From: Picochlorum sp. SENEW3
Taxonomy: Eukaryota
DNA length: 64,000 nt
Assembly (NCBI GenBank): GCA_034226945.1
Contig: CP120462.1
Location: forward strand, 62,001-126,000
Direction: 5' to 3'
Made by a program: the position numbers and the translations under genes. Below are positions 3,001 to 60,080 of this stretch, one piece after another (position 1 is the first letter of the stretch; each line of letters starts with the position of its first letter). Under the pieces are notes generated by a model that did not search any database, was not told the DNA's origin, and was given only the letters and a program-made list of their open reading frames with translations.

Positions 3001-3708
3001 ACATCCTGGCCCATCATTCAGCGCTGAGCATCCTTGTGATGATGATAGCAATCAATTATTATTAGTCTTCTTTGTAAAGACAAACATGCAGTTCATGTCA
3101 TGTCATCCTAAAGTACATTGGCTTTTTTTCATGAGGTTTTTGACCAATTCATGAATTGAGCATGGCCATATGGCTTGCAAGCTCTCTTCCTGATCAGCAT
3201 CCTCATATGAGGATGTCAGTAACAAGGGGTTTGATCGTACCATAAGTGGCACTTCAGCTGCATTAATTGATCAATGTAAAACAAAATATATTAATTGAAA
3301 GCATTGCGGTTGGATTACCAGTATATACAGGTGCGTGTTCGCCATTGAGCAACCATGCTGGGACACAATAGGTTCCGTTCAGGCGTCGTCTAGTCAGGAA
3401 TGCGCCTCATCGGATTATTTAATATATATTATTATTATGATAACCCTATCCTGCATCCAAATGGCACCAAGTCTTGGTGAACGTGCGGAGTGGTGCACGC
3501 TTTTTTGTCCAAACATTTCATTTCATTCTTCTTCTTTTTATTCTTTGGTTGCTCGGCGAGTCTCGTCGCAAGGCTGTGAGCTTTGTTTACTTCTCACATC
3601 TACTAGTCACTTGCGTTGACATGATGGAAATATCCGGTTGCAGGGAGTCACCTTTGTGGATTTAGCAAGTACACTTGTCTTCTCTCAGGCCCAAACACAG
3701 ATTGATTC

Positions 3709-15609: not shown

Positions 15610-16626
15610 TCGTCAAAAATCTATTTACATATATATCAGACTGCAGTGTATAGGGAACGCCATGCAGTCATGCAGATGTCTGAGGCCATGCCCCACAAGT
15701 AGATCAAGGGTCATATGACCCTTGTCATGCAAGGCTTGCAAGGGCCTCGCGCTCTTTGCCAGGGAAGGAATCTTTGGATGGGCAGATCTGCAGGCATCAG
15801 TATCATCGACCGATACGACGAGGTCTCAAGATGCCTTATCGACACCAGTGCCATGCACTCTCTGTAGCCATGCAGGGTCCGGTTAACAACCAGAATGCGT
15901 GGCATGATACTTCGATCAAAGGAGGCCCCTGATGGGATATGGAGTCCATCGGAACGTCTGTGTACGGAGAGGGCGTTTTTTCGTGCCAGAGGGCTAGTTT
16001 ACTGCAGAGAAGTTAGATTATTTGATCCCAAAATTATTGGAAAGTGTTTTGGAGCAGTACTGCGCTGTCTAACGGGCGTGGAGAGAGGATAGTCGAGGTG
16101 CGTGGTTCACACAATTTCCCTGTCCACAAGTAGAATGTGACATTTCAAACCTCTATGGCGTTGCCTAGAGTGGATGGAAGGGGCCGATACCGCTGCAATA
16201 TGTGTATAATAATTTATTGAATCGAATGGAATTGGAATATGAGGGATATGTCCCGAGAAGTTTGAAAGTCGGCCGACTGTCTGCTTTGCGTTGAAAACGG
16301 ACGGTGGAGGCGGGCGCTCGTGCTGGTTTGGAAGGGAGGGTTTCCCTGTTGTATGCCCACGGGCAGCTCTTGTATCATACATTACCGCTTTCTCGACTTT
16401 CTTTGCAGGGTTTTGATCTAATAAGGTACCGATACGCTTGATCTGATCATCGTGGTGGGAGCAATGTGGACCTTTTTGTAGTGTGTTTTGATAGTTTGAT
16501 AACCCTTGAGTGTTCGAGAGCCGTTCGGTGAGGAGGAGGAGGTGCAATCGCGTATCGTGCTGCTGCCACGGGGTCTGAGCTCTAGTTGTCTTCGTTTTGC
16601 CTTGGAGGTGTTTGCGGGCTCTGAAT

Positions 16627-18840
16627 ATGGCGAAGGCGAAGAACGAACAGCAGCAGCAGCAGCAGGGTGGGGCATCTGAGAAGGAGGCCAACAAAAAGTC
16701 CAATGGGGTGGCCAAAGATGTCGAGATGGCGAAAGAAGATGGAGACATGAGCCAAGTCAGAAAGGAAGAAGATGCTATTCTGGAGCAAGGAGAGGAAATT
16801 GCCTCGAGGAGGGCACTCATTGCTCAGGCCTTCAAGCCCCCATGTCTTGAGCCTGAGAGGCCACTGTCCCACTGGTCACATGTGTTGGGGGAGATGAAAT
16901 GGTTGGCGGTCGATGTTGCACAAGAGCGACTTTGGAAACAATCGGTTGCGTTCGCTATCGCTGTGGAGATTGGAAAGATGCAAGGGGATTTTGGATTGAA
17001 ACAGCCTCCAGAGGATTGCCGGCAGTTTAGTAATGAAATCAAGCAATTGAAGCTCGAGGCTGCAAAAGCGGCCGGCCAGGCAACAGGAAGGAGGTCAGTC
17101 AAGGCTACAAATCTTCCTAAACCAGCCGTATTGCTGGGCCTGAATGCAGAGGAGGATCCTGCCTTGGCGGAGATTGACGAAGGGGTTGCATTGCTGAAAA
17201 AGCAGGCCAAAGAGATTGGGGAAAAGCCTGACACAGTCGTCGATCTTGCCGAAAACAATGTGAAGCTAACCCTACCATGGGATGATGCAACCACTGAAAA
17301 GATGGAACATCATCTGTATGAATTGGAAAAGCAGAGGCTCATCCAAGAGGAAGCCCAGTTCCGATCGTATCGCCTCGAGTATGAGGCAGCTCTTGCAAGT
17401 CATCAGTTGGCCATTGCTGAGCAGCAGGCTGCCGCCAATGCTATTGATGGATTTGAAATCGGGCAATCGCTTGATCTTGATCTCATGGACGATGGGCTTC
17501 TCGGTCCGCCTAGGAGGTACAAGAAGAGAAGGACAGGGTATGCCGTGGATGAATATGATGATCGTAAACTGGATGGCTACGCTGACAGAAGAAGAGCGAA
17601 AGCATATAGAGATGGAGATACAGATCCCAACTACTCCGCAGAGACAGGTCGTTATGGAAGGAGGGCCGCAGGACGAAACAGAAGACCTCTCAATGACCGC
17701 AATAGGAACTTCAGGCAGCGTCAAGACCATTATGCTCAAGGTGGAAGAGTGCAAGGACAGCCAGGCATTTTGTCTTGGAGTAGAAATGAAGATGATTTAC
17801 TATTGGCGATAGTGCACGAGTTTGGCGTGAATTGGACTCTGGTGTCAGAGGTCTTGTCGAGAAGTTTATCTCTGCAAGGTATTCATAGACCACCACAACA
17901 ATGCCGCCATAGATTCCGCCAGTTGATTACACAGGAAGGTCAGAGTCTGACAGACGAGAAAGCATACGAGTTATTGACAAGCAGGTTAGCAAAGCAGCAG
18001 GCAAGGGAATTATTGCTCAACTCCCTTCCAGTACGGAACGAATCGCTGGTACGCTTTTTAGAAGCATTGGCACAAGTAGGAGCCAGTGCCAGAAACAGGC
18101 GACTTGCGGAAGAGAAGCGTTGCGAATCGATTCGCACACAACGACAGGAGCCACACACATCGCACAAGAGTGTTGTGAATGGCATCATGCAGCAAACAGG
18201 GGGAAGACACCTGACTCCTTTAGAATTGTCTGCTCACGTGATGAATACGTATGCCCAGCAAGCACGGCAAATACAGGCACCGTACAATCCCAACCAACCT
18301 CCACAGCAAGGTGGGCCAGATGGAAGTAATGGTCAAATCGGTGGACCACCAACTGTGCAGCAAATGTCGGCCCCTGGTCAGGGAATGGCCAGGCCAGGGG
18401 GCGGAAGTGTTGCCATGAACATTCAGCAACTGACAAATATTCTGAACGCGAACAAGCTTCCGAATGGCAGTGAATTGACGGATGAGATGAGGAAGGCACT
18501 CGAAGAGAAGAAGAGAGCCTACTTGGTAAGACTGACGCAGTCCCACAAAGCAGCCATGGCCCAGAGGCAGGGCTTGACACCCAGTCAGATTTCGTCAGGG
18601 ACAGCCATGGCTTCCATGCAGGTGAATGCGAGGCCCCAGATGGGGACTGTCGTAGCACCAGGCATGAATATGTACGCGGGAAATCCCGGTCCTGCTCAGG
18701 GAGTGACCGGAGTTCCAGCTCAAGGAGCCATTCAGCAAGGAGTTGCCATCCTCCCAGGAGGGCAGCAGCAGAATCAGCAATATATGGTGCCTCGAGCCCA
18801 GCAAGCCCCTCCAGTGCAGGGGCAGCAGCAGAATCAATAA
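16627..18840 (+). CDS. EAF1: EAF1-like NuA4 scaffold protein (HSA plus Myb/SANT domain, Q-rich tail)
   Basis: HSA motif SHWSHVLGEMKWLAVDVAQERLWK; SANT motif WSRNEDDLLLAIVHEFGVNWTLVS...RPPQQCRHRF. Confidence 0.8.
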   Translation: MAKAKNEQQQQQQGGASEKEANKKSNGVAKDVEMAKEDGDMSQVRKEEDAILEQGEEIASRRALIAQAFKPPCLEPERPLSHWSHVLGEMKWLAVDVAQERLWKQSVAFAIAVEIGKMQGDFGLKQPPEDCRQFSNEIKQLKLEAAKAAGQATGRRSVKATNLPKPAVLLGLNAEEDPALAEIDEGVALLKKQAKEIGEKPDTVVDLAENNVKLTLPWDDATTEKMEHHLYELEKQRLIQEEAQFRSYRLEYEAALASHQLAIAEQQAAANAIDGFEIGQSLDLDLMDDGLLGPPRRYKKRRTGYAVDEYDDRKLDGYADRRRAKAYRDGDTDPNYSAETGRYGRRAAGRNRRPLNDRNRNFRQRQDHYAQGGRVQGQPGILSWSRNEDDLLLAIVHEFGVNWTLVSEVLSRSLSLQGIHRPPQQCRHRFRQLITQEGQSLTDEKAYELLTSRLAKQQARELLLNSLPVRNESLVRFLEALAQVGASARNRRLAEEKRCESIRTQRQEPHTSHKSVVNGIMQQTGGRHLTPLELSAHVMNTYAQQARQIQAPYNPNQPPQQGGPDGSNGQIGGPPTVQQMSAPGQGMARPGGGSVAMNIQQLTNILNANKLPNGSELTDEMRKALEEKKRAYLVRLTQSHKAAMAQRQGLTPSQISSGTAMASMQVNARPQMGTVVAPGMNMYAGNPGPAQGVTGVPAQGAIQQGVAILPGGQQQNQQYMVPRAQQAPPVQGQQQNQ

Positions 18841-22041: not shown

Positions 22042-22067
22042 ATTATATATATAAACGTAATGAACAT

Positions 22068-24812: not shown

Positions 24813-26165
24813 ATGGAGAAGAAGGCGGATCAGGTGGGAATGTCGATGTACCGGCTTTCAGTTTTGGTGATGCTTGGTCTGATTCTGGTGTCGCCGTTCC
24901 TGTGGATGGCGATTGATGGGTCAAATGTGGCACTGACGGTTGTGGCCTCTTTTCATTCTACTTCGTCGGAGACTGGGGAGCAGCGAATGTTGCTCGGGTA
25001 TTCTCGGGATGGCAGTTTACAGGCATACAATGAAGAGGCTCTGGAGAAGCCGTGCAGAGCTCCAGCTGGGGGAGAGGATTCTGTTCCTTCGTTAGAATTC
25101 ATTCATGAATGGGCGAGTGAAAAAGATGCCATAGAAAGAGAATCCGTGACGTTATTGACCCATCTGTCAGTTGACAGATTGACAATGCTTGAAAACCAGT
25201 GCATGACATGGGCAGATCCTCTGGTTGCCGAGGTGTATGTGCCGCTGGTACGATCTAAACAGAGGGACTCCAAGCCTGCTGTGTATGAAAGTTCGAGCTC
25301 TTTAGGAGAGATCACTCGAGGTATCTCATCCTTCCATTCTAATATGGAACGTCAGGGGTCCTGCAAGCTGCACATTGAACTTGTGGGACAGTACATCAAG
25401 GATGAGAAGAAGACTCCTTACCCCATCAACGCTCTCCGAAATAGAGCCATGGACTTGGCAAGAACAGAGTTGGTTATTTTACTGGATGTCGATTTCGTAG
25501 CAACGCCTCTGCTCGGGCTGCCACAGCCGGGATACAAAGACCCTCAGGTGTTTGACCAGATGCTCAGCATTGCAAACAATAGAAAGGCTCTCGTTGTTCC
25601 TGCGTTTGAACTCACGAATAGACATGTCGAGCCCATCCTTGGACAAAACTATGCTAGAAATTTAGTTCTGGATGGCAAAACGGCGGTCGTGAAGAGCTGG
25701 CAGGCTGGCGCAGTGGATTACTTTAATGCTCATGACGCCCCCTGGGGCCATGGCCCCACGAACACGTCGCGGTGGGCCCGTTTGACCAAGCCAGTCATGT
25801 ACAAGATCGATTACAAACCAAAATACGAACCGTTCGTGTTGCTGTCGCGGAAATTGGCTCCATATGCAGATGAAAGGTTTGTGGGATATGGTGGAAACAA
25901 GATTGCATACATCAATCAGCTTGTTGGGCTCGATTTTGGGTTCAGAGTCCATCCATATGCATTCTCTATCCACGTTCCTCATCATAGAACAAAAGCAGCG
26001 GACAGATTTGTTGCTCATAAGAAGAACGGGCACTCGGAGATTGAGCAGTTGAGAGTTGACATTGAACAATCAATACACAAAGGAGACTATGCTCCAGTGA
26101 CTGCTGGATGCACCTCAGATCAGGGGAAGCGCTCTGTTTTCACCACAAAGAAACAGTTTGAATAA
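24813..26165 (+). CDS. GT49 (LARGE/B4GAT1-like) glycosyltransferase, type II membrane
   Basis: N-terminal TM, YPINALRN, DxD motif LDVDF, ALVVPAFE, YEPF, DERFVGYGGNK. Confidence 0.85.
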   Translation: MEKKADQVGMSMYRLSVLVMLGLILVSPFLWMAIDGSNVALTVVASFHSTSSETGEQRMLLGYSRDGSLQAYNEEALEKPCRAPAGGEDSVPSLEFIHEWASEKDAIERESVTLLTHLSVDRLTMLENQCMTWADPLVAEVYVPLVRSKQRDSKPAVYESSSSLGEITRGISSFHSNMERQGSCKLHIELVGQYIKDEKKTPYPINALRNRAMDLARTELVILLDVDFVATPLLGLPQPGYKDPQVFDQMLSIANNRKALVVPAFELTNRHVEPILGQNYARNLVLDGKTAVVKSWQAGAVDYFNAHDAPWGHGPTNTSRWARLTKPVMYKIDYKPKYEPFVLLSRKLAPYADERFVGYGGNKIAYINQLVGLDFGFRVHPYAFSIHVPHHRTKAADRFVAHKKNGHSEIEQLRVDIEQSIHKGDYAPVTAGCTSDQGKRSVFTTKKQFE

Positions 26166-33236: not shown

Positions 33237-33520
33237 TATACCATGGGCAGCATGCCTTTTTTCTCTTTTTTAAAACCAATCTTGGTGGGTTTAGGAAGCT
33301 TTTTTCAAAAGCAACATGTGCGTATCGAATCTCTTAAATTGGGAATCAGTTCTGTTTTTGTACTCCTCTCGTGTCCCCCCATACATCAGTATGAGTGCTG
33401 TTTTCGCATTTACATGAAATACATCTCAACACAGGGGTATACATACGTCAGTATGGCGGTGTAGTCGCCGTGCTTCGAATTTGAATCTGCGCAACGACAT
33501 TGCTTTTTCAGCCTGATTGG

Positions 33521-34915
33521 ATGGTGGAGATGAGTGACAAGAAAATTGTTGATCTGACATCCTTGTCTGATGACGACAATAAGGAGGAGGAGGAAGATGT
33601 GATGAATTTGGTGAGCCCTGATACCACCAAGGGTGGTGGTACGGTTGAGGAGGATGTAGATGCTCGGGCCAGTAGATTGCGTGATCAGCTGGCAGCGAGG
33701 GCTAAATCTATGCGGCATTTGGTGAATTTGGGGAAGGAGATGCGCCGGGGGTTGGTGCCAGGTGGAAGGCAGCAGCAGCAGGAGGAAGAGGTTGGGGTGG
33801 TTGCTGAGCATGAGGGAGGGTCTCTGGCCTCTGAGAAGGACACGCCAAGGGATCAGAAGACTGAGAAATCTCGCGCTGCAGAGGAAAGAAAGCTTGAGCG
33901 AGCAAAACTTGCAGAGGAAAAGAAACAGGAAAGAGCCAAACTTCAAGAGGTGAAGAAACTGCAGAGGCAGGTTTTGAGTGAAAAGTATGTTTTGAAATTC
34001 ATCCAAGTTGTTATGACCCCAGAATTGATGAGTCAGCCCCTTGGACTCGCGATAGGGCAGGCATTTCAGAAAACTGCAGAGAAGGCAGAGCATGAGCGCA
34101 TTTCATACAAGGTGGCTTCCATAGAGCAGTATGGTAATCATCCCATGCTTGCGTGGAATAGGATTGAACCGGATAGTGACAACGGAGGTATGCTGGAGAG
34201 CGAGGAGCCTTTTGCCATGATTTGCTTGGAAGGTAAAGACATGATTGAGAAGATTGGAAATGGATGGATGGATGCCATGTTGAATGGTGTGCCACAAGGG
34301 CACCGTGTCCACATTCTCGTGCACCGTTTGGAACAAAGCATGCGACAACGAGAGGCAGAGGATCATAGGGAAGCGATGAGCCAAAATTCCTTGTCACAGG
34401 CGCCTAGATTTATGGCATCATCTGTGGAAAATTATATGACCTCGCTGTTGGTGGAGCGTGCGGATGTCGATGTGTTTGATGCTAGCAGTCTTGAGGAGGC
34501 ATCCAATCATGTTCTTGCAATAACTCGTGCAATAGCGATGCGACATATTGATGTTGGATCTGGAGCAAAGTATCTACAAGGAAAGTCAAAACGTAGGAAT
34601 GGATCGACGAATTTAGAAACGTTGTTGGTCTCGAGGCCCTTGGCAAGAGATGACATGTTGTACCCCATTAGAGCACTGTGTGCTTTGCCCTCTATTGGAC
34701 CAGTTTCAGCGCATGCGTTGGTTGAGGAATACACAAGCTTCAAAGGCATTTTTGAAATGCTAGATGATCCTCGAACAAGCAGAATACAAAAAGAAAAGGA
34801 ATTGGAAAATATGGTGGGATCGAATGGCCGGAGGGTGGGGCCAAAAGCGGCAAAGCAGATTGTCAACCTCTTCTCATCTGAAGACCCAAATACGCAATTG
34901 ACTGATTCACAATAA
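33521..34915 (+). CDS. EME1-like crossover-junction endonuclease subunit (degenerate ERCC4 plus HhH)
   Basis: Charged coil (ERKLERAKLAEEKKQ), EEASNHVLAITRAIA, ALCALPSIGPVSAHAL, LENM...RRVGPKAAKQIVNLFSSEDP. Confidence 0.7.
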   Translation: MVEMSDKKIVDLTSLSDDDNKEEEEDVMNLVSPDTTKGGGTVEEDVDARASRLRDQLAARAKSMRHLVNLGKEMRRGLVPGGRQQQQEEEVGVVAEHEGGSLASEKDTPRDQKTEKSRAAEERKLERAKLAEEKKQERAKLQEVKKLQRQVLSEKYVLKFIQVVMTPELMSQPLGLAIGQAFQKTAEKAEHERISYKVASIEQYGNHPMLAWNRIEPDSDNGGMLESEEPFAMICLEGKDMIEKIGNGWMDAMLNGVPQGHRVHILVHRLEQSMRQREAEDHREAMSQNSLSQAPRFMASSVENYMTSLLVERADVDVFDASSLEEASNHVLAITRAIAMRHIDVGSGAKYLQGKSKRRNGSTNLETLLVSRPLARDDMLYPIRALCALPSIGPVSAHALVEEYTSFKGIFEMLDDPRTSRIQKEKELENMVGSNGRRVGPKAAKQIVNLFSSEDPNTQLTDSQ

Positions 34916-41373: not shown

Positions 41374-43295
41374 ATGGCTGATACGACGAGTGGTGGAATA
41401 CGGCGTAGTATTCTTCCCAAACAGAAGAAGACTTTGGGGAAGGAAGACACAAGGACAGAGTGTCGTGACGCTGCAAAGGAGGTGGATGTGACTGGGTTGG
41501 GAGAATACGTGGTGTATGATTATACAAAAAGATTCTTTCGACCTCTGAATTCTGTTCGCGGTGCTGTAGAGGCCGAAGAAGAGGATGAGGTGGAGCAGCA
41601 TGCATGGACGGATCCAGACAGCACAAGGAAGAGCAATGCGACTCATCGATTGCGACTCTCCGCAAAGGTTTGGACGCAAAAGAGTCTATGCTATGATTGT
41701 TGGACGAGCTGCGATCGGGTGACTACTGTGGATAGATGCGTAGGTGAAGGGGTGGATGGGGTTCGGGGATTAGGAGGGGGTTGCATGAAGGAGTTGGGGC
41801 GGGTTTTGTTTCTGAACAGTGATCCGGACGCTTTTCGCGATTTCTTGGTACGTTGTTTATACATATGTATACATATGTATGTCTAGAAATTCAAGTACAT
41901 TCTTCGATGTAGATGTGGAATGATCCCGTGGATGATTGCCAGCCCATGCATGGAACACTACTTCCGTTATGGGATGTATCATGCCGTGCTATGGATGGCG
42001 ATAAAGCATCATCGTCGTATGATCAAGGAATGCAGATCACAGCGATGTGCTTTGACCCGAATAATCATGATGTACTTGCTGTGGGGCTGGGTTCGCTGGA
42101 ATATGAGCACAGCAGTATTGGTGGACGGGTTTCTGTGTATGGGTTGCTCGACCTTCACCGGCCTCATTTTACGATTGAATTGCAATCTGGAGTAACAAGT
42201 CTCGCATTTGGACCTGATGGATGGCTTGCAGTGGGATGTCAGGATGGTGGTGTGGTGGTCATGTGTCCTCGTCGAGGAAGTACATCATCATCTTCATCAT
42301 CACATACAGGATTGATCGATCGAGAGTCATATACGGTGCTTCCGTGTCGACTAGACCAGCATCATGTGTTTCCTGTATGGCATGTTTCTATGTTTCTCAG
42401 TCAAGAAGAGGAGGACCATGCTGTAGTGATGATTCGTTCCGTATCACAGGATGGGGTTGAAGGGATCTGGTCATGCCAGATGAATGATGATGATGAATGT
42501 GTGCATCGTCTCCAATCCAGTATCATCGGAGTAGAGAATAGTACATCTGAGTACGATCCGGGCATTTTTCTCAAAGCATCGAACACAGACGTCTTCCAAG
42601 CAATCTCGTGTGCTGATAGGAGGGATGGCGTAGCAGTGTATGGCACTCTGAATGGACACACCATGTCCATGACAAGCACATCTCCCACCCATCACATGGC
42701 CCCAGTACAATCAGTATCTATCAATCCTTTCGACGCAACATACTGCCTGTCAGCGTCATTGGATTGGACAGTGTCTATACGCAATTCACAGACACTTGAG
42801 AGCAAGCTTGACATTGACATTGGCCAGCCAGTCACAGATGCTCAGTGGAGCCCTCAAGCCTCCACAATCCTAGGTGTCATCACCAGATCAGGAGATGCTC
42901 TTGTGTATGATGTATCAGTGAGTAAAGAAGTACCACTCTGTCATCAGCGAATCTCAGGCACAGATTCCCTGACCAAGATTCTTTTTCATAGGCGGGATCC
43001 CCTCCTGTTGATTGGTACAACTGGGTACGCCTTATATATATATATATATGTGTGTGATCATCGTGACATCCAATATTTGCATGAACCACATATACACACC
43101 CCTGTGTGCAGAGGACGCATTGTATGCATGAAGCTCTCCCCCAACCTACTATGCAGAAAGCAGGCAGACGATTCTGCTGATTTTGCCTTTCTTGATGACG
43201 ATGGAGAGGATTCCGTGAAGCCAGCACATCGACCCATCCTTCCAGTGGAAGAACAGATCGATATACTGCACGACACACTCAAACACCCCTATTGA
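41374..43295 (+). CDS. Divergent axonemal dynein intermediate chain IC1/IC78 (ODA9/DNAI1-like) WD40 protein, multi-exon
   Basis: Spliced ...DAFRDF-MWNDPVD...GTLLPLW, DVLAVGLGS, LSASLDWTV, DAQWSP..ST, KLSPNL all resemble DNAI1-family motifs. Confidence 0.7.
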
Positions 43296-51118: not shown

Positions 51119-51720
51119 CTAAGTAAAAAAAGGACTTGGAAGAAAACCTCAAAGCGAAGAGAAAGGAGATGTTCATTTCGCAAACATAGTTCAAATAAAT
51201 AAAACACCCTGATTCATAAACAAATCTGTGAATATTCAAAATTATCTAGTTTGTGATTCGCCAAAGTGGTTTTTTCCAGCTTTATATCTGTGTGAATGGT
51301 AGCGATTTTCAAAAATTCGGAGAATTTTGTATTATTACGGGTGGAAGACGGAGATCTGACACAGAAGGAGTGATACGGTCGACACATATATGTGATATAT
51401 ATCACTGTCAGATACGCCACGGCGATTGCCTCTCAACGACAGCATTGGCAGAGCATCGGAACCACGTCGTCGTCTCACGACGTCATCCAATGGGGGCGTC
51501 TTCCAGGCGTCGATTTTACGGAGATCTGACACTGACGCTCTTTCGATGCCGGCACCAGACACGGGTGTAGGACCGCTCAGACGACACTAGAGACGGGAAT
51601 ACATCAGTCACGCGTGTTTCAAAAAACCGCAGATGTTACGGAGAGTTTTGACATGGCTTTTGAATAACCAATGCAATGTGGCGCAGTGCGTTGCATTTCA
51701 TTTCTAAAGACTAGGTAATC

Positions 51721-52506
51721 ATGGCATCGAGGCGATTGCTGGCGTCACTGTGGGCAGTCAGGGGGTCGAATGCTGTGAGCCATGGTTCTTGTGTCAGCAG
51801 TCAGATACCTCGTCATATTCACGCCCAAGGTACAATTGTACGAGAGGACAGTGAGACGAGAGAGAGTGGATCATGGATGCCAGAGTGGATGCGTGCTAGG
51901 ATGCCAGGGGTTCTGGGAGGCAGTAGAGAAGAAATTCAGGAGATGCAGGACTTGACGCTGGACTCGTACGCGAGCCAATTAAAAATGGCACGGAGATTGG
52001 GTTCTATGTCTGGGTTTGCATTTGGATCTACGAGTGCGTCGGATCCTGCTGCTCAGGGGACACTGCTGTTGTATGAAAAGATTATTGAGCGTATGAACTC
52101 GGCAGAGCGTGAGGATGTCAATGCATTCTCGTTGAACAGAAAAGTAATAGTTGCGGAGCAGGTTGGATGCAGCGTGGAGCAAGTGGAAGATTGCATTGCT
52201 CGATTCAAGTGGACGCAGCATATGATGAGGACGCTTGCGGCGTACAGAAAAAAGGGAAACCCAATGCCCAAGACGATGGAGGAACTGGAGCAGGTGGTTG
52301 GCAAGTGGCAGAGCTTCAGGTCGATTGAGGCAGGTGTGGCTTCATCTGGAGTAGCTTCTTCTGGAAGTATTGTGATTGCGATGGATGCTGTGTCGCCAAA
52401 GGATGGAAAGCCCTGTGGGCTTGCAGGGATGACAGTAGGTCGATCGACGAAATGTCCTCGATTTCGAAAGTCTTACAAGGCGTGCTGTGGAAAATATACA
52501 CGATGA
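51721..52506 (+). CDS. Organelle-targeted protein with a stand-alone SRP54/Ffh M-domain-like region and a C-terminal SEC-C-like motif
   Basis: LTLDSYASQLKMARRLGSM and IIERMNSAERE...RKVIVAEQVGCSVEQV resemble the Ffh M domain; VGRSTKCP...KSYKACCGK resembles SEC-C. Confidence 0.65.
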   Translation: MASRRLLASLWAVRGSNAVSHGSCVSSQIPRHIHAQGTIVREDSETRESGSWMPEWMRARMPGVLGGSREEIQEMQDLTLDSYASQLKMARRLGSMSGFAFGSTSASDPAAQGTLLLYEKIIERMNSAEREDVNAFSLNRKVIVAEQVGCSVEQVEDCIARFKWTQHMMRTLAAYRKKGNPMPKTMEELEQVVGKWQSFRSIEAGVASSGVASSGSIVIAMDAVSPKDGKPCGLAGMTVGRSTKCPRFRKSYKACCGKYTR

Positions 52507-53487
52507 CATGTATCAAAATAGTATTCAATGACGAAGAGTTTCAATACGGATGAGATGGGGCCAGGGACCCCCCTCGTCATAGTCGCAATCAAGTACAAGA
52601 AAGAAACCCTTGACAGAAGAACAGAAGTATAGGATTCAGAAAACTGTTCTTCGCCTACTGCCCTAGGGTTACTGACAGAAGTGCCAAAGAGTTTGGTTTG
52701 TTTGCAACTCCAGAAACTCGAGACATTGCGGTTGCTGTCTATTACCGAGAGAATGCATATCTCAAAATGGCGATTGAAATCATTAAAGCAGCGGCGCAAG
52801 ATAGATATGCTGCTGCTGATGGTCAGGAATTTGCAAGAACATAAGTCAAAGTCAATCTTACTTTCATCTTCACCAATGAGGGACCATCACATGTCGTTTT
52901 ATTACCCTTATACTGTAGGCGTATTCATTACTGGAACGAAAATATCAGAAAAAGGGTATCAAAACAGGGTATAGTTTCTTCGACAGAAATGACCGCCTGT
53001 TGAATTAATATAAACGAGTCAGTGGCAAAAGGGCAACAGAACTTCGAGACTGGAAAGGCTACTTGACTGAGTGACACAAGGCTGGCCACATCTGCACAAA
53101 ATACTGTACAGAAGTCCCCAAAACAAAGCAAAGATCTCGTGAATGCCAAACAGATCCCTAAAGAGGCCCGTGGCACCTCTATTACCCCCAGTGGCCCCCC
53201 TGACAGCTTGGAGCAAGCTCTGCAGAATGCTTGTCAATTACTGGATGAGCAGATAGCTGCAGTACTGGATGATCATATGTATGTGAGCAGATTCGAAATC
53301 TAATAGTCATGCCTCCCGTTGACGCCGCTTTCATACGAAGAAGCCGTCGATCAACACGTTCATCCTGAAGACATGGCCGCTCGTACTGTTTCTGAATATA
53401 GAAAATCATATGCGCGAACAAAACAACCCCCAGATTGGATGTGGTGGACCTCGCCATCACGAGATCATGACATGGTGCTGCGCACGC

Positions 53488-55566
53488 TCAGCTGAGGGCC
53501 GCGAGGATGGCGATGCATGCAGCCACCCCAGAGGACATGCAGCGCAAATCAACCGCGGATGAGCTGGGACTGGGAGGGGATCCGTTGGCATACCCAGCAG
53601 CGGTATTCAAGCTCCCGTCCGGAAGGATCTCCAGGCCCTTGCTGCGCACCTCGTCCTGATACCTCTTGGCACACGCGACAAACGGATCAAATTTGATGCT
53701 GCCAAAGCCGGTCGCTGGATCCCACCCAGGGGCCGCAGGGAACCCATACAGACACTTGTTGCCGAACTGTTTGTCACCTTGATTGTTTCCCACAGAAATG
53801 TCGTGGAAGGCATCAGTGCAGTTTTCTCCCATCCAGTAGATCATGGGATTGGCATACCCAATGGTCTTGTATCCGTCTGCCAGAAGCTTCTGGTTGACGA
53901 GCGTAAATATCGCTGCAGCCATGGGTGCAGCTAGAGAAGTGCCTGCTTGCAGTGAGAGATCTCCATTTGCAGCAGACAAGATAGGGAAATACGCAGCATA
54001 CATTGCGATATCTGGGAACGCTCTTCCATTGGGATTGAATCCAGGAGTGTCTTTGGTGGGAAACCCATCAAAGGTACTGGCATTGTTCTCCGACAAGTAT
54101 CGCTCTGCAAACTTCTTCTGCCATACTGGCATTGAGTATAGGCTTGACGGGTATTCAGTGCCCGTAAAGCCTCCTCCAGATGTAATGCCACCGTCAGTCA
54201 AACTGCTTGCAACTACCTCAGTGCCTTCTGGGTACTCCTCCGTGGCCAGCATCTGGGTGCCACCCACGACGGTCACCCAGGGACTGTTGTTTGGCCATAC
54301 AGATTGCAAGACCTGTTGATTTGCGTACAAGGGGTTATCCTTGGGTAAGCATGTCTCCTTCTCAGTGAGATCAGCTAGTCCACTTGCACCAGAGTCTCCG
54401 CTGGACACCAAGATGGAGACGCCACTCAGGGTGAGATTCTTCAGGGCTTCTTCACGAAGTTTGGGTTCAACTGCATAATCAGAGTTCCAACTCAGCGACA
54501 CTACCTGAGCACGTTCCTCAGAAGTGGTGACATTCTTGATAAACTCAAGGAAGTACTCTGTAGAGAGTTGGCTGTATGCCACCTTTATGTCTTGTTTAAT
54601 CGAGGCAGGCAACTTATCAGTGGTACCTGCTTCCACTGCCTCAACCGTTTCCTCGATGGCCTCTGATGCATAGCCTTTTCCCTTCAAAAACTCCTCCAAA
54701 TAAGCAACAGCCACAGATATCGGCTGCTTCGTCGGTGTAAAGTGTGTGACTGCCTGAGGCGCAAAAGCCTGTTGAGTCTGGACGTCGAGCATGGTTTCAG
54801 TACATTCGCCATCCCCTTCAGGAAGGCAAATAGAAACGTTATTTTTGGGTGCCCAGTCAGTCAGTTGCAGGGGAATATTCGGAACAAGACCCTGCAATAT
54901 AAGATATTCTTCCACAGCTGTTGTGTTAACAGCAGAATCTGTTAGGCCAAAAGAGAGCGTGGATGCTTGTACCTGATCTTCAGTACCCTGAAGCCCAGGA
55001 TTAACTCCATAGTATTCCCTCAATGACGCCGCCGAGGCATTGAAATAGTTGTAGATGGATGGCCTCATGAAGACAGTTTCATTACCATCTGAGAACACAG
55101 TCAATATTTCTGTTGCCTCATACAAGGTGTTTGGCGGGGCAACTTTGCTGAGAGGCAGGCCGTACACATACACGTTATCCTCAACCTTGACCGACTTCAG
55201 TTCATCCAGCTGCTCTGCGTCAAATGTGACGGTTGTGTTGCCCGCAAGGGACGACACCATGATGACTTCCACCCTATCAACGCACAGGTCAGGATTCGCA
55301 GGATTCACGGTAACATTGTTACCACACACAAAAGATAGTGGTGGATTTGTACACCAAGCGCTAATCTCGGAAATACCTTCAGATTTGTTCAGGCCAAAGT
55401 ATTCAGGAATCGTTGTCTTCTGAAGTTTGACTGCAGGGCCCTTGCCTTGATTAAGCTTTCTTCTTCCATTCTGAGTGATGGAGTTCAGGCCAACGGGCGT
55501 ATCCAGCGCAAGAGCAGGGCTTGTCACGAGGAACACTGCAAGCGAGTAAAGTAGGAATCTCGCCAT
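53488..55566 (-). CDS. Sedolisin / tripeptidyl-peptidase I-like S53 peptidase, secreted, probably GPI-anchored
   Basis: Signal peptide, ETMLD (ExxxD), SSGDSG, SPWVTVVGGT, SGGGF, GRAFPDI, GTSLAAP, Ca-site GWDPATGFG, hydrophobic C-tail. Confidence 0.9.
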   Translation of the reverse strand: MARFLLYSLAVFLVTSPALALDTPVGLNSITQNGRRKLNQGKGPAVKLQKTTIPEYFGLNKSEGISEISAWCTNPPLSFVCGNNVTVNPANPDLCVDRVEVIMVSSLAGNTTVTFDAEQLDELKSVKVEDNVYVYGLPLSKVAPPNTLYEATEILTVFSDGNETVFMRPSIYNYFNASAASLREYYGVNPGLQGTEDQVQASTLSFGLTDSAVNTTAVEEYLILQGLVPNIPLQLTDWAPKNNVSICLPEGDGECTETMLDVQTQQAFAPQAVTHFTPTKQPISVAVAYLEEFLKGKGYASEAIEETVEAVEAGTTDKLPASIKQDIKVAYSQLSTEYFLEFIKNVTTSEERAQVVSLSWNSDYAVEPKLREEALKNLTLSGVSILVSSGDSGASGLADLTEKETCLPKDNPLYANQQVLQSVWPNNSPWVTVVGGTQMLATEEYPEGTEVVASSLTDGGITSGGGFTGTEYPSSLYSMPVWQKKFAERYLSENNASTFDGFPTKDTPGFNPNGRAFPDIAMYAAYFPILSAANGDLSLQAGTSLAAPMAAAIFTLVNQKLLADGYKTIGYANPMIYWMGENCTDAFHDISVGNNQGDKQFGNKCLYGFPAAPGWDPATGFGSIKFDPFVACAKRYQDEVRSKGLEILPDGSLNTAAGYANGSPPSPSSSAVDLRCMSSGVAACIAILAALS

Positions 55567-55702
55567 TCCGTCACGGTCTGATACGATGCGTGGGGCTTCT
55601 CTTTTCCTTTGATTTAAGATTTTGTAATTTATTGTTTCTATTAGGTTTTTAGTTTATTCTAATGTTAATGTTAATTTGTGTTACAATCGCCCGACTGCCT
55701 AC

Positions 55703-55795
55703 AATTAATTAAACATGCCCGCGATGCTGTCTTTGATATCAAATCGATTACCTGCAGGTAAAGGCAGCTGCCTTTCATCGATCCCGATCGGGATC
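55703..55795. repeat. Chain of overlapping perfect palindromes (array A)
   Basis: TTAATTAA; TTTGATATCAAA; AATCGATT; TTACCTGCAGGTAA; AAAGGCAGCTGCCTTT; GATCCCGATCGGGATC. Confidence 0.9.
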
Positions 55796-56356
55796 TGTGT
55801 TTCGATCTCAAATTTTGTACATAGATTTGAGGATTCGTTCGGGGGCGTCTCTGGACCGACCAGCCTCATGCGAGATGGGATGGTGCAGCCCATGTGTTTG
55901 AAGGTATTGGTTTGATGCGAATACTTCAAAACTTTGGACATACACAGATGGTTCCAAACATACGGTGTGTTTGCTTGTGGACTTGAACATGAGACAGGGC
56001 AGTTTGAGGACATATGTTGGTCGTTGCCGACGGAACAGGTGCTCTAAATGCCAGCTGGCAGATGTGTTGATCAACAGAGAGCTCTAGCCAGGTCTGTAGA
56101 AGTTCGAGTGTGCACCGAGATTGAAGGCAATGCCATGTCCATAGGCAGTTACAGCAAACTATATCATTATGATGGATCAAATATATGGTCTATGTGATTC
56201 AACGTCCCCGTTTATTTTCTTGAATCATCTTGTCTTCTATTTCCCACTGTATGGATATATGTCATTCCAACCTATACCTTCTTTTTGTTTGGGCAGATCC
56301 TCGTGATGCTCTCGATCCTTTTGTTTTAATTAACGCATCGCAATTAGTGTGGGTTG

Positions 56357-56586
56357 CAGCACCGGTGCTGGTACCAGCCTACATATGTACATGCATGTAG
56401 GTTTGTACAAACATCATGATCATGATGTTTCTGATCAGAAGATGCGATCTCCATCCTCGCGAGCTCGCGCTCCGGAGCGAGGATCGATCCTCGAGGAGCC
56501 ATATCGATATGGGATATATATCTACCATGTATATATGCATATGCATCCATGGCCATGGGCGCGCGCGGGGCACCTATGTATACATA
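56357..56586. repeat. Chain of overlapping perfect palindromes (array C, 17 palindromes of 10 bp or more)
   Basis: Read directly, e.g. CAGCACCGGTGCTG, AAACATCATGATCATGATGTTT, CGAGGATCGATCCTCG, CCATATCGATATGG, TATGTATACATA. Confidence 0.95.
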
Positions 56587-56623
56587 TCCACCTTCATATT
56601 TTTTGCCTCTGATCGGACGAGTC

Positions 56624-56963
56624 GGCATATTTGATGGCATTTTCGGGGCATATTGATGTTTCCTGTCAAGTACGCGTTTGATGAGATGAGGATCCTGGGG
56701 TAGATCAGTTAGATTGAAAGTTGATTACTCTCCCATCGAAACCTGATTGTGATGGGAGTCTTTGCCGCCCTGCTGCGCCTCGCTAAGCTTGCTGAAGCTC
56801 CAAAACTGGCTCTTGACTGGTTCACTCATGCATTCTGGGCAGAGTGCAGGCATATTTGTTGACCAACTGGCATATTTTCTGAAATCAGCATATCGAGGGG
56901 CATATTTGCCGGACCAAATATGCCTCGAAAGCTTGATCTGGCAGATTTTCAAAGGAATATGCC
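56624..56963. repeat. Cluster of GGCATATTT-like motifs in both orientations
   Basis: Copies start at about 56624, 56636, 56647, 56849, 56869, 56899 and 56940 (+) and at 56915 and 56956 (-). Confidence 0.7.
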
Positions 56964-57188
56964 AAAAATGGAAACCCTGCTCATAAGAGGCCTAGGCCTC
57001 GGACACGGGGGATCTTTCTGGCACGGCCACGATGTTGCGTGCTCCGCGTTGAGTCGAGCAGCGTGAGGAATTCAAATGACTTATTAACCCACGCTTGATC
57101 AAGAGGCGACCCGGTCAGGGGGCATTGATGTAAAATCATACATACATATTGTCTACAACTAGTACAGGTTGAATACTCGAGAACGAGT

Positions 57189-57707
57189 ATGGCGACGTCT
57201 GTAGTGGCGAGCCAATATCAATACGCGACAACAAGAGGGGACATGATGGCTACGACGAATGCTGGGCTGGCGGAGGGGCAACGGAGGCAAGGAGGCTTTA
57301 AAGGGGATCGAGACTATCATGTGGACGCACTCATTGAAGCCTGTGAGAAGCCTGTGGTAGATGAAGGGACGATGACTGGTGTGAAGGAACGGGACTTGGT
57401 GCCATTTTTTGATACAGGTGACCTGGTTGGCGGAATGGGCTCTGCTCTGGATACGCCCGTGGGAGGGAATCAAAAGAAGCTGCGGGGGTATGGAAATGTA
57501 AACAAGGGTGGGTACTATGCTTCTCAGCAACAAGACAATTGTCCAAGAGGGAAGAAGAAGGGAGGGGATGGAAACAAGGGAGGAGCAAGGCAGTATTCGC
57601 AGAAGCAAAAAAGTGCATCTTCTTCGCCAAAGGAAAAGTATGCTGGTCCAGCTTTTACACTGAGCCCAGTGCCAGAAAGTGTTCCAAAGCCAACGTTTAT
57701 TCTGTAG
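57189..57707 (+). CDS. PNRC/Edc1-like disordered protein (candidate mRNA decapping activator)
   Basis: Low-complexity G/K/Q body ending KYAGPAFTLSPVPESVPKPTF (YAGxxF plus PxPxxxPxP). Confidence 0.7.
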   Translation: MATSVVASQYQYATTRGDMMATTNAGLAEGQRRQGGFKGDRDYHVDALIEACEKPVVDEGTMTGVKERDLVPFFDTGDLVGGMGSALDTPVGGNQKKLRGYGNVNKGGYYASQQQDNCPRGKKKGGDGNKGGARQYSQKQKSASSSPKEKYAGPAFTLSPVPESVPKPTFIL

Positions 57708-57897
57708 TGCGCGAGAAGTTGTAGGACACGTAGGTAGTTTGTGTATTATTATGAAGTTTTGTTCAGCTACAGCAGTAGAGTCAGTGGGATATGGGAAGAA
57801 TAAAGTATTGAAATTTTTTGCTTTTTTCTTCTCTGGAAACACGTCAGAGAGTTGTATAAATGATCTTTCGTGGACTTGCATGCAAGTTTTCAGAGCA

Positions 57898-58424
57898 TTG
57901 ACGCTGTATCCCGCTGCTCAGGGGACACTGCTGTTGTATGAGAAGATTATTGAGCATATGAACTCGGAAGAGCGTGAGGATGTCAATCCATTCTTCGTGG
58001 ACAGAAAAGCAATCGTAGCGGAGCAGGTTGGATGCAGCGTGGAGCAAGTGGAAGATTGCATTGCTCGATTCAAGTGGACGCAGCACATGATGAGGACTCT
58101 GGCAGCGTACAGGAAGAGGGGGAACCCAATGCCCAAAACTATGGAGGAACTGGAGCAGGTCGTAGGGCGGTGGCAAAATTTCAGGTCCAGTGAGGCAGGT
58201 TTGGCTCCATCTACAGTTTCTTCGTCGGGAAGTATTGTGATTGCGATGGATGCTGTGTCGCCAAAGGATGGAAAGCCCTGTGGGCTTGCAGGGATGACAG
58301 TAGGTCGATCGACGAAATGTCCTCGATTTTGAAAGTCTCACAAGGCGTGCTGTGGAAAGTATACACGGTAGCATATGCAAGATCAAATTTCGGTTCAAGT
58401 CCCAACACAGATGAGATGGGGCCA
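57898..58424 (+). pseudogene. 5'-truncated duplicate of the 51721-52506 gene with a premature stop
   Basis: 57908-58367 aligns with 52043-52502; CGA>TGA at 58330-58332; the 3' flank GATGAGATGGGGCCA is shared (52549 vs 58410). Confidence 0.85.
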
Positions 58425-59509: not shown

Positions 59510-60080
59510 GCCGCATCTATTTTTTTCACTGGTATTTTAATTGATGATAATCATCGTGATGTGATATCCACAATACAATGCACAATCTTGTGATCACCAT
59601 CTTTACACGACGGGTTACGCTACGCTTTACACTACGGTGGTTCCGTACAAGCAAGCACTCTCGAGAACAAGGTGTAGCAAGAATCTAATCTCATTGACTC
59701 GGGCCAGTGTATTTTAAAAAAATACATTGTTGGTAAAACCAACAATAGATGCTCGCAATACTCGTCTTATGAGTGCCTGACCCACCTTCACCACAAAAGC
59801 AATACCATGGGACGCCTGTACGCGCTGATATCAGCATCGATGCTCATATATATCTCTTGTGCCATCCGTCACCATGACTGAGGATCAGGCGTAGGGGAGA
59901 TTCAGGAGAGATGCAGTTTGAACCATAGTATTCGAATGGGACCACCATAAAGGTGTTGCATGCATGTGGTTCAGATTTGTCATGATGATTATTGAACAGC
60001 AGTTGATGTGAAACATCTCTTTGAAAGTACAAGCAATTACAATATTCTGTACAAAGTATATGTTTATTGCGTGTCGTCAA

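Follow-up and report, generated by a model that had tools for sequence, protein, structure and literature searches.

Excision footprints are usually met singly and in reporter genes. When the flank hairpin of V(D)J recombination is opened off center, even-length, spacer-less P-nucleotide palindromes result. The target of PIF/Harbinger elements is TWA, a rule that the repeats described below do not follow. Footprints of Ac/Ds carry palindromic P-nucleotide insertions on both sides of the breakpoint, with microhomology in 85 to 100% of the Arabidopsis footprints and palindrome arms of up to 20 nt in S. cerevisiae, according to the available portions of one report (PMC5873905). Flank hairpins are made by the hAT, Transib, RAG1, and MULE enzymes and are opened by host nucleases before end joining, as stated in the accessible part of a second source (PMC5499845). 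CACTA elements make 3-bp duplications and are present in green algae, in the sections available from three further sources (PMC4158355, PMC5093975, 10.1101/342816). Finally, the LTRs of maize Sireviruses contain a palindrome-rich cis-regulatory region just upstream of the TATA box, in the available text of a fourth study (PMC4728375).

Here, we analyzed two chains of perfect palindromes in a 64-kb stretch of Picochlorum DNA, the window: chain 1, at 55732 to 55795, and a second chain that begins at 56357. Chain 1 is real and strongly nonrandom, and stacked and nested 3-bp scars, a variant on the known hairpin-type footprints, explain it best. The initial annotation had listed the palindromes of chain 1, and each was found in its place (55732 to 55743, 55742 to 55749, 55748 to 55761, 55760 to 55775, ATCGAT at 55777 to 55782, and 55780 to 55795, with arms of 6, 4, 7, 8, 3, and 8 nt, respectively). 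Neighbors mostly overlap by 2 to 3 nt, as had been noticed: the successive overlaps are 2, 2, and 2 nt, followed by a 1-nt gap and an overlap of 3 nt, and of the 64 nt between 55732 and 55795, 63 belong to at least one of the six palindromes. Four palindromes with arms of at least 6 nt within 64 nt are not a chance event. The second chain has about 17 palindromes with arms of at least 5 nt in 230 nt. No long palindrome is common to the two chains, in agreement with the earlier reading, and the longest sequence that they share is 8 nt, a length matched by 42% of 300 shuffles.

No second copy of either chain was found when the 64-kb window was compared to itself by BLAST. Within the window, nothing suggests a MITE-like or other dispersed repeat, as there is no second copy and at most 8 nt are common to the chains. 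It had been proposed that the chains reflect a repeated generative process rather than duplication, and this proposal holds: the two chains are unrelated in sequence, each occurs once in the window, and both obey one rule. A search of plasmids, phages, and prokaryotic genomes returned no match, the exact 28-nt chain pattern had 0 matches among prokaryotes, and no homologue was found of the ORF that spans chain 1. An insertion bounded by a 19-nt imperfect direct repeat (55608 to 55626 and 55801 to 55819) was considered and rejected, as the 79% match was judged to be chance.

AATTAATT and TTAATTAA do precede chain 1, at 55703 to 55712 (Table 1). There are only two copies of TTAATTAA in 64 kb, at 55705 to 55712 and at 56326 to 56333, and each lies 19 to 23 nt to the left of a chain, the second copy being 23 nt to the left of the chain at 56357. 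In the direction of the S53 gene, each chain is just upstream of its TTAATTAA copy. Two copies compare with 0.66 expected, and at least two matches were found in 12 of 100 shuffles. TTAATTAA is possibly a TATA-like element. A more extensive lead-in motif common to both chains was rejected, as local alignments were weak beyond TTAATTAA.

Codon usage gives a negative log-likelihood in each of the six frames between 55567 and about 57188, and both chains therefore lie within a 1.6-kb divergent spacer. That length is long for the genus, as mean intergenic length is 220 to 613 bp in three Picochlorum genomes in the part available of the source (PMC6141220). The spacer accounts for 20 of the 59 palindromes in the window with arms of at least 6 nt, and no Rfam family, tRNA, or Pfam family was found in it or its ORFs. 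Chain 1 had rightly been placed upstream of an S53 peptidase gene and is 166 to 229 bp from the start codon. The S53 ORF matches Pfam Peptidase_S8 (E value of 4.6e-8; subtilase clan), the solved structures that it matches best are kumamolisin (E value of 2.8e-14) and tripeptidyl-peptidase 1 (TPP1), and it shares 97% identity with a Picochlorum protein that one source calls tripeptidyl peptidase. Searching prokaryotic genomes for the locus with the S53 protein gave 16 pattern matches, 0 of which were confirmed. The remaining genes of the window are ordinary, compact green-algal nuclear genes. One 476-aa ORF (33485 to 34912, plus strand) has strong coding potential and no Pfam family.

The neighborhood has several further peculiarities. 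A direct duplication of about 520 bp (52043 to 52563 and 57908 to 58424, 87% identity) has the S53 gene between its copies. It spans the 3' half of a gene in which one region resembles the SRP54 M domain (SRP_SPB), and the copy at 57908 to 58424 is fused to another 5' ORF (57189 to 57707). The second duplicate copy has a 14-nt perfect palindrome at 57874 to 57887 that is absent from the first (52010 to 52030). The left arm is present in each copy and the right arm in the second only, as if an inverted copy of 7 nt had been added, and a 3-nt repeat is not evident. Moreover, a 26-nt inverted match (55490 to 55515 and 57439 to 57463, 88%, E value of about 0.03) encodes ALDTPVG both in the S53 N terminus and in the first exon of the neighboring gene, and its center, 56476, lies midway along the second chain. 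A large decayed inverted duplication centered on that chain was rejected, as its sole support was this one match and no further symmetry was seen. Finally, GGCATATTTG occurs at 56624 to 56930 in four direct copies and one inverted copy, in the part of the spacer that adjoins the plus-strand gene.

How the palindromes are put together follows a simple rule. Overlapping palindromes form doublets in which the 3 nt to the left of the first center recur to the right of the second. Thus, the order of a doublet is flank-XYZ, an inverted copy of the left flank, an overlap of 1 to 4 nt, an inverted copy of the right flank, and XYZ-flank, with inverted copies of 4 to 8 nt on each side. Both this doublet anatomy and the specific 3-nt repeat were observed directly. 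In a test of 15 pairs of palindromes (arms of at least 5 nt that span the interval between centers 6 to 40 nt apart; the TA run excluded), the repeat of k = 3 nt was found in 5 pairs versus 0.23 expected, a figure to be read knowing that the rule was found by inspection, first in the chains, and that all controls are internal to one 64-kb window. Repeats of other lengths were found in 5 pairs for k = 1, 1 pair for k = 2, 0 for k = 4, 1 for k = 5, and 0 for k = 6. A strict search of the whole window found 12, 2, 8, 0, 0, and 0 events for k of 1 to 6, respectively, and 7 of the 8 events at k = 3 were outside the TA run. When 2,000 chain pairs were synthesized with the same arms and overlaps and random new bases, k = 3 events averaged 0.26 with a maximum of 3, versus 5 in the two real chains. 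The rule then held in both of the other overlapping doublets in the window with arms of at least 6 nt (the isolated doublets in Table 1).

In eight two-sided events (F1, F2, F4 to F7, and the two isolated doublets), the two palindrome arms together account for every base of the tract that the repeats enclose. The overlaps in these events are 2, 2, 4, 2, 1, 2, 3, and 3 nt, and the repeats are GAT, CTG, ACC, CAT, ACA, TCA, ATA, and GAT, without a fixed sequence. When the tract and one copy of the 3-nt repeat were peeled away for each event, the chain 1 test segment shortened from 96 to 69 nt and the sequence was continuous. Relaxed thresholds (arms of at least k, centers at least k apart) gave 9 events for k = 2 and 8 for k = 3 in the second chain, and relaxed peeling does not discriminate between the two because trivial tandem units count. 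The one-sided footprint pattern was seen at 11 of 52 palindromes versus about 6.2 expected, which falls short of significance by itself, and most single palindromes in the window do not fit the 3-nt rule.

Table 1. Coordinates of the gene, the spacer, and the palindrome features, with the anatomy of each footprint
Feature	Position	Strand	3-nt repeat and its copies	Tract	Tails and overlap	Remarks
S53 (sedolisin/tripeptidyl-peptidase-like) gene	53488..55566	-				Intronless 692-aa ORF with an N-terminal signal-like segment
Noncoding spacer, 1.6 kb	55567..57188					Separates the S53 gene (-) from a + strand gene that begins near 57189; holds both chains
AATTAATTAA	55703..55712					Two overlapping 8-nt AT palindromes, 19 nt left of chain 1
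F1	55732..55749		GAT, 55735-37 and 55746-48	55738-45 (8 nt)	6 nt (left), 4 nt (right); overlap 2 nt	Chain 1
F2	55748..55775		CTG, 55752-54 and 55768-70	55755-67 (13 nt)	7 nt (left), 8 nt (right); overlap 2 nt	Chain 1
F3, tentative	55777..55795		TCG, 55778-80 and 55788-90	55781-87		Chain 1; one-sided, tract copies the right flank only; one-sided pattern not significant alone
F4	56357..56378		ACC, 56361-63 and 56373-75	56364-72	7 nt, 6 nt; overlap 4 nt	Second chain
F5, younger	Within 56379..56412		CAT, 56382-84 and 56394-96	56385-93		Second chain; inside F6
F6, older	56379..56412		ACA, 56381-83 and 56407-09			Second chain; strict doublet seen once F5 is removed
F7	56409..56440		TCA		8 nt, 6 nt; overlap 2 nt	Second chain; seen after removal of a 6-nt unit in the left palindrome
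Second half of second chain	56441..56586					146 nt; at least 9 further palindromes with arms of at least 5 nt
Isolated doublet	51383..51405		ATA		6 nt, 7 nt; overlap 3 nt	In another divergent spacer
Isolated doublet	59824..59844		GAT		6 nt, 6 nt; overlap 3 nt

Chain 1 contains two footprints and perhaps a third, and the first 84 nt of the second chain contain four or five footprints, two of them nested. F6 was exposed by the removal of F5, and therefore F5 struck the center of a palindrome made by the older F6. Such nesting is a direct observation, and the exposure of one strict footprint by the removal of another is as expected for successive events. F7 is a weaker case because it depends on first removing a trivial 6-nt repeat, a unit that could be a minimal footprint or a simple tandem duplication. 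Neither by hand nor by script was a fit to the strict two-sided 3-nt rule found in 56441 to 56586. We note that one pair in the second chain, at 56499 to 56522, has a 5-nt direct repeat, ATATC (about 0.015 expected among the 15 pairs), which may represent another type of event or reflect AT-rich repetition.

Long palindromes are also in excess beyond the chains. The window contains 59 perfect palindromes with arms of at least 6 nt versus 16.6 ± 3.6 in 100 dinucleotide-preserving shuffles (maximum, 26), a count inflated by a tandem 10-nt unit that makes a 22-nt palindrome (41858 to 41880; kept but flagged as trivial) and by a (TA)8 run (43033 to 43049; excluded from the tests). When the window was split into 47,176 bp of likely coding ORFs and the remaining 16,824 bp of noncoding DNA, the noncoding part contained 40 such palindromes versus 5.1 ± 2.3 expected (23 when the two chains and the TA run were left out), and the coding part was at expectation, with 13 versus 11.3 ± 3.3. 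Among noncoding inverted repeats with arms of at least 6 nt, there were 40 versus 4.06 ± 1.91 with a spacer of 0 and 2 to 10 versus 3.0 to 4.1 with spacers of 1 to 12 nt, which are barely enriched. Spacer-less palindromes are thus enriched about 10-fold in the noncoding DNA of the window, and coding DNA is not enriched; both the lack of a spacer and the restriction to noncoding DNA were seen directly. The long palindromes are spread over at least 18 spacers, divergent, tandem, and convergent. Four isolated ones do not follow the doublet rule (15705 to 15724, 3198 to 3215, 18121 to 18136, and 25743 to 25758, with arms of 10, 9, 8, and 8 nt, respectively), and the last two of these are inside Pfam-supported ORFs, a Myb/HSA protein and a glycosyltransferase.

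Palindromic tetramers occur at an observed/expected ratio of 1.02, so the palindromes are not copies of one core motif. Common half-sites were rejected, as the shared 8- to 10-mers were within chance by our own estimate and the tetramer cores were not enriched. Folding of the chains as single strands was unremarkable relative to shuffled sequence (z scores of -0.58, -1.86, and -1.33), and a structured RNA or hairpin RNA precursor was rejected on these scores and on 0 Rfam matches at the gathering threshold. The specificity for a spacer of 0 fits hairpin tips, not loop-containing fold-backs, and the restriction to noncoding DNA is what a mutational process would leave if genes were purged of its products. 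We conclude that the palindrome excess points to a sequence-independent process on duplex ends, purged from genes, and not to selection for RNA or DNA hairpins or for a single binding motif.

We lean toward the view that chain 1 is a stack of DNA repair scars from the repeated insertion and excision of a cut-and-paste element that makes 3-bp duplications. Such an element would insert and duplicate 3 bp of its target, and when it left, both flanking DNA ends would close into hairpins. Nicking of the hairpins 4 to 8 nt from the tip would convert the flank ends into spacer-less palindromes (P nucleotides), and the two tails would join through 1 to 4 nt of microhomology to give an overlapping palindrome doublet bracketed by the 3-bp duplication. 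The overlaps of 2 to 3 nt would be the microhomology joints between the two inverted-copy tails of one event. The events of chain 1 would have taken place at sites 6 to 10 nt apart in the inferred preinsertion sequence, and two events in the first 84 nt of the second chain would have hit the center of the palindrome of an earlier event. On the excision-scar reading, to which we give slightly better than even odds here as well, the chain would be neither a functional module nor a member of a repeat family. The unusually tight clustering, with three events in 19 nt and four or five events in 25 nt of inferred ancestral sequence, speaks against excision.

How well the doublets match described footprints can be judged from their parts. 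Each has what marks an excision footprint: a short duplication that brackets the junction, inverted copies of the flanks that start from the break, and a microhomology joint. Footprints of Ac/Ds (hAT) are alike in their inverted flank copies, in retaining both copies of the target duplication, and in the microhomology joint, in the portions of the source that describe them. The duplications of hAT elements are 8 bp, and in those same portions the palindromes have one complemented base at their center. In the present doublets, the duplication measures 3 bp, and the palindromes are even in length without a central base. Moreover, the footprints here are stacked and nested in natural DNA, whereas those of Ac/Ds were recovered from a reporter. 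Transib/RAG duplications are 5 bp and the P tracts usually 1 to 4 nt, in contrast to 3 bp and tracts of 4 to 8 nt here, where the pair at 56499 to 56522 is the single one with a 5-nt repeat. With Transib/RAG, the doublets would share a hairpin exactly at the end of the flank, as the accessible part of the source has it (PMC5499845).

The 3-bp duplication without a sequence requirement is that of the CACTA/En-Spm group, which includes Jordan and Idaten of Volvox and, in the sections available, also combines cut-and-paste footprints with residence in green algae (PMC4158355, PMC5093975, 10.1101/342816). Unlike in that group, no CACTA-ended element or transposase is present in this window. Among 30 candidate transposons in the window with inverted ends and a 3-nt flanking repeat, none had ends longer than 11 nt, all were chance-like, and 0 of 30 started with CACT. 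No transposase Pfam domain was found in the 99 ORFs of the window that were scanned. Moreover, no report of flank hairpins came to light for elements with 3-bp duplications, the CACTA superfamily included, and a search of the open-access literature found no description of palindrome chains or a palindrome excess in the nuclear intergenic DNA of Picochlorum or other green algae. We infer the hairpin chemistry, the transposon, and a CACTA/EnSpm-like family for the agent.

Perhaps no transposon was involved. A host or domesticated nuclease could cut open intergenic chromatin with a 5' stagger of 3 nt, which fill-in would duplicate, and capping by hairpins or turn-around of a polymerase would add inverted copies before joining. 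Such a nuclease would explain the doublets, the 3-nt repeat, and the spacer-0 specificity, and it is consistent with a window that has neither an element nor a transposase and with events that cluster very tightly. We nonetheless consider it unlikely, as a fixed stagger is a hallmark of transposase integration and we know of no cellular nuclease that combines a fixed 3-nt stagger with the lack of a sequence preference. Type II topoisomerases have a stagger of 4 nt, and Spo11 has one of 2 nt.

Selection might instead have built the chains as a regulatory array, in which dimeric factors would bind a bidirectional promoter shared by the S53 gene and its neighbor. Both chains are indeed in the divergent spacer, and chain 1, 166 to 229 bp upstream of the S53 start codon, lies beyond TTAATTAA, which is possibly TATA-like. 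The Sirevirus LTRs offer a precedent in their palindrome-rich region upstream of the TATA box (PMC4728375, in its available text), and the likeness is that palindromes are closely packed immediately upstream of a TATA-like element. As that text describes them, however, Sireviruses repeat one consensus palindrome within a repeated element, whereas here all of the palindromes differ and the locus is single copy in the window. We regard the array as improbable, since its palindromes have no common motif, regulation gives no reason for 3-nt direct repeats or nesting, convergent gene ends too have long palindromes between them (as at 22043 and 30023), and the folding scores given above are unremarkable. 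Scars may later have been co-opted for regulation.

A polymerase could also have written each chain in a single end-joining event, as iterative fold-back filler in which a theta-type enzyme alternates random addition with copying of itself. Purified Pol theta does alternate random addition with snap-back copying of 8 to 15 nt, yielding products of up to 138 nt, and its templated insertions resemble the chains in being short inverted copies of nearby sequence with a microhomology joint, by the available portions of the source (PMC4912351). Moreover, the chain can be parsed from left to right into "new" and "copied" pieces. Pol theta filler, however, predicts loops and random intervening bases, and neither fits the chains here. 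Snap-back in cis needs a loop, yet enrichment is at spacer 0 only; random bases fail the 3-nt rule, as 0 of 2,000 simulated chain pairs reached 5 events; and isolated doublets elsewhere obey the same rule. We hold fold-back filler to be a shade more improbable still than the array. As a grammar for the chains, random bases plus snap-back read from left to right was ruled out by the spacer-0 specificity and the simulation.

The initial annotation raised a different filler, one that bridges flanks from different loci. The locus has been rearranged, as the duplication around the S53 gene attests (52043 to 52563 and 57908 to 58424, with 87% identity), and neither chain is within 1 kb of its borders. 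The bridging model is not supported because each tract, wherever a doublet was resolved, is templated by its own immediate flanks, as an inverted copy of the directly adjoining bases. Peeling, moreover, restores a continuous sequence, and the same doublets occur at two unrelated spacers. Such a junction is very improbable. Finally, an assembly artifact or engineered polylinker is hardly credible: restriction-type hexamers are dense (8 in 93 nt and 33 in 261 nt of the chains), but the sites recur in a way unlike design (ATCGAT four times and ATGCAT three times), nothing in plasmids, phages, or prokaryotic genomes matches, and the excess extends over at least 18 spacers and is absent from coding DNA, a boundary that artifacts would not respect.

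Excision scars in natural DNA would be of interest beyond this locus. Here, the footprints appear to be legible in a natural genome, stacked and nested with their order readable, and they dominate a promoter region. If the excision reading is true, chain 1 is a readable record of past transposition, which is rare, in a very compact genome, and the otherwise unexplained excess of perfect palindromes in the noncoding DNA of this alga is explained. A palindrome doublet with a 3-nt direct repeat would then serve as a rule for counting past transposition where elements are rare or gone, and tens of base pairs of new promoter sequence could arise from the flanks alone. A further prediction is that Picochlorum, a genus of biotechnological interest, has an element with 3-bp duplications that is active or recently was, and such an element would serve there as a tagging tool. 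We speculate further, though we think it unlikely, that a hairpin-forming enzyme with a 3-bp stagger, either from a low-copy, very mobile transposon or a domesticated transposase, keeps cutting intergenic DNA with a preference for the palindromes of its own making, such that scars seed scars and chains reinforce themselves. If so, the 10-fold noncoding excess of spacer-less palindromes would be accounted for, and V(D)J-like junctional diversification would have created a measurable share of Picochlorum promoter sequence from scratch.
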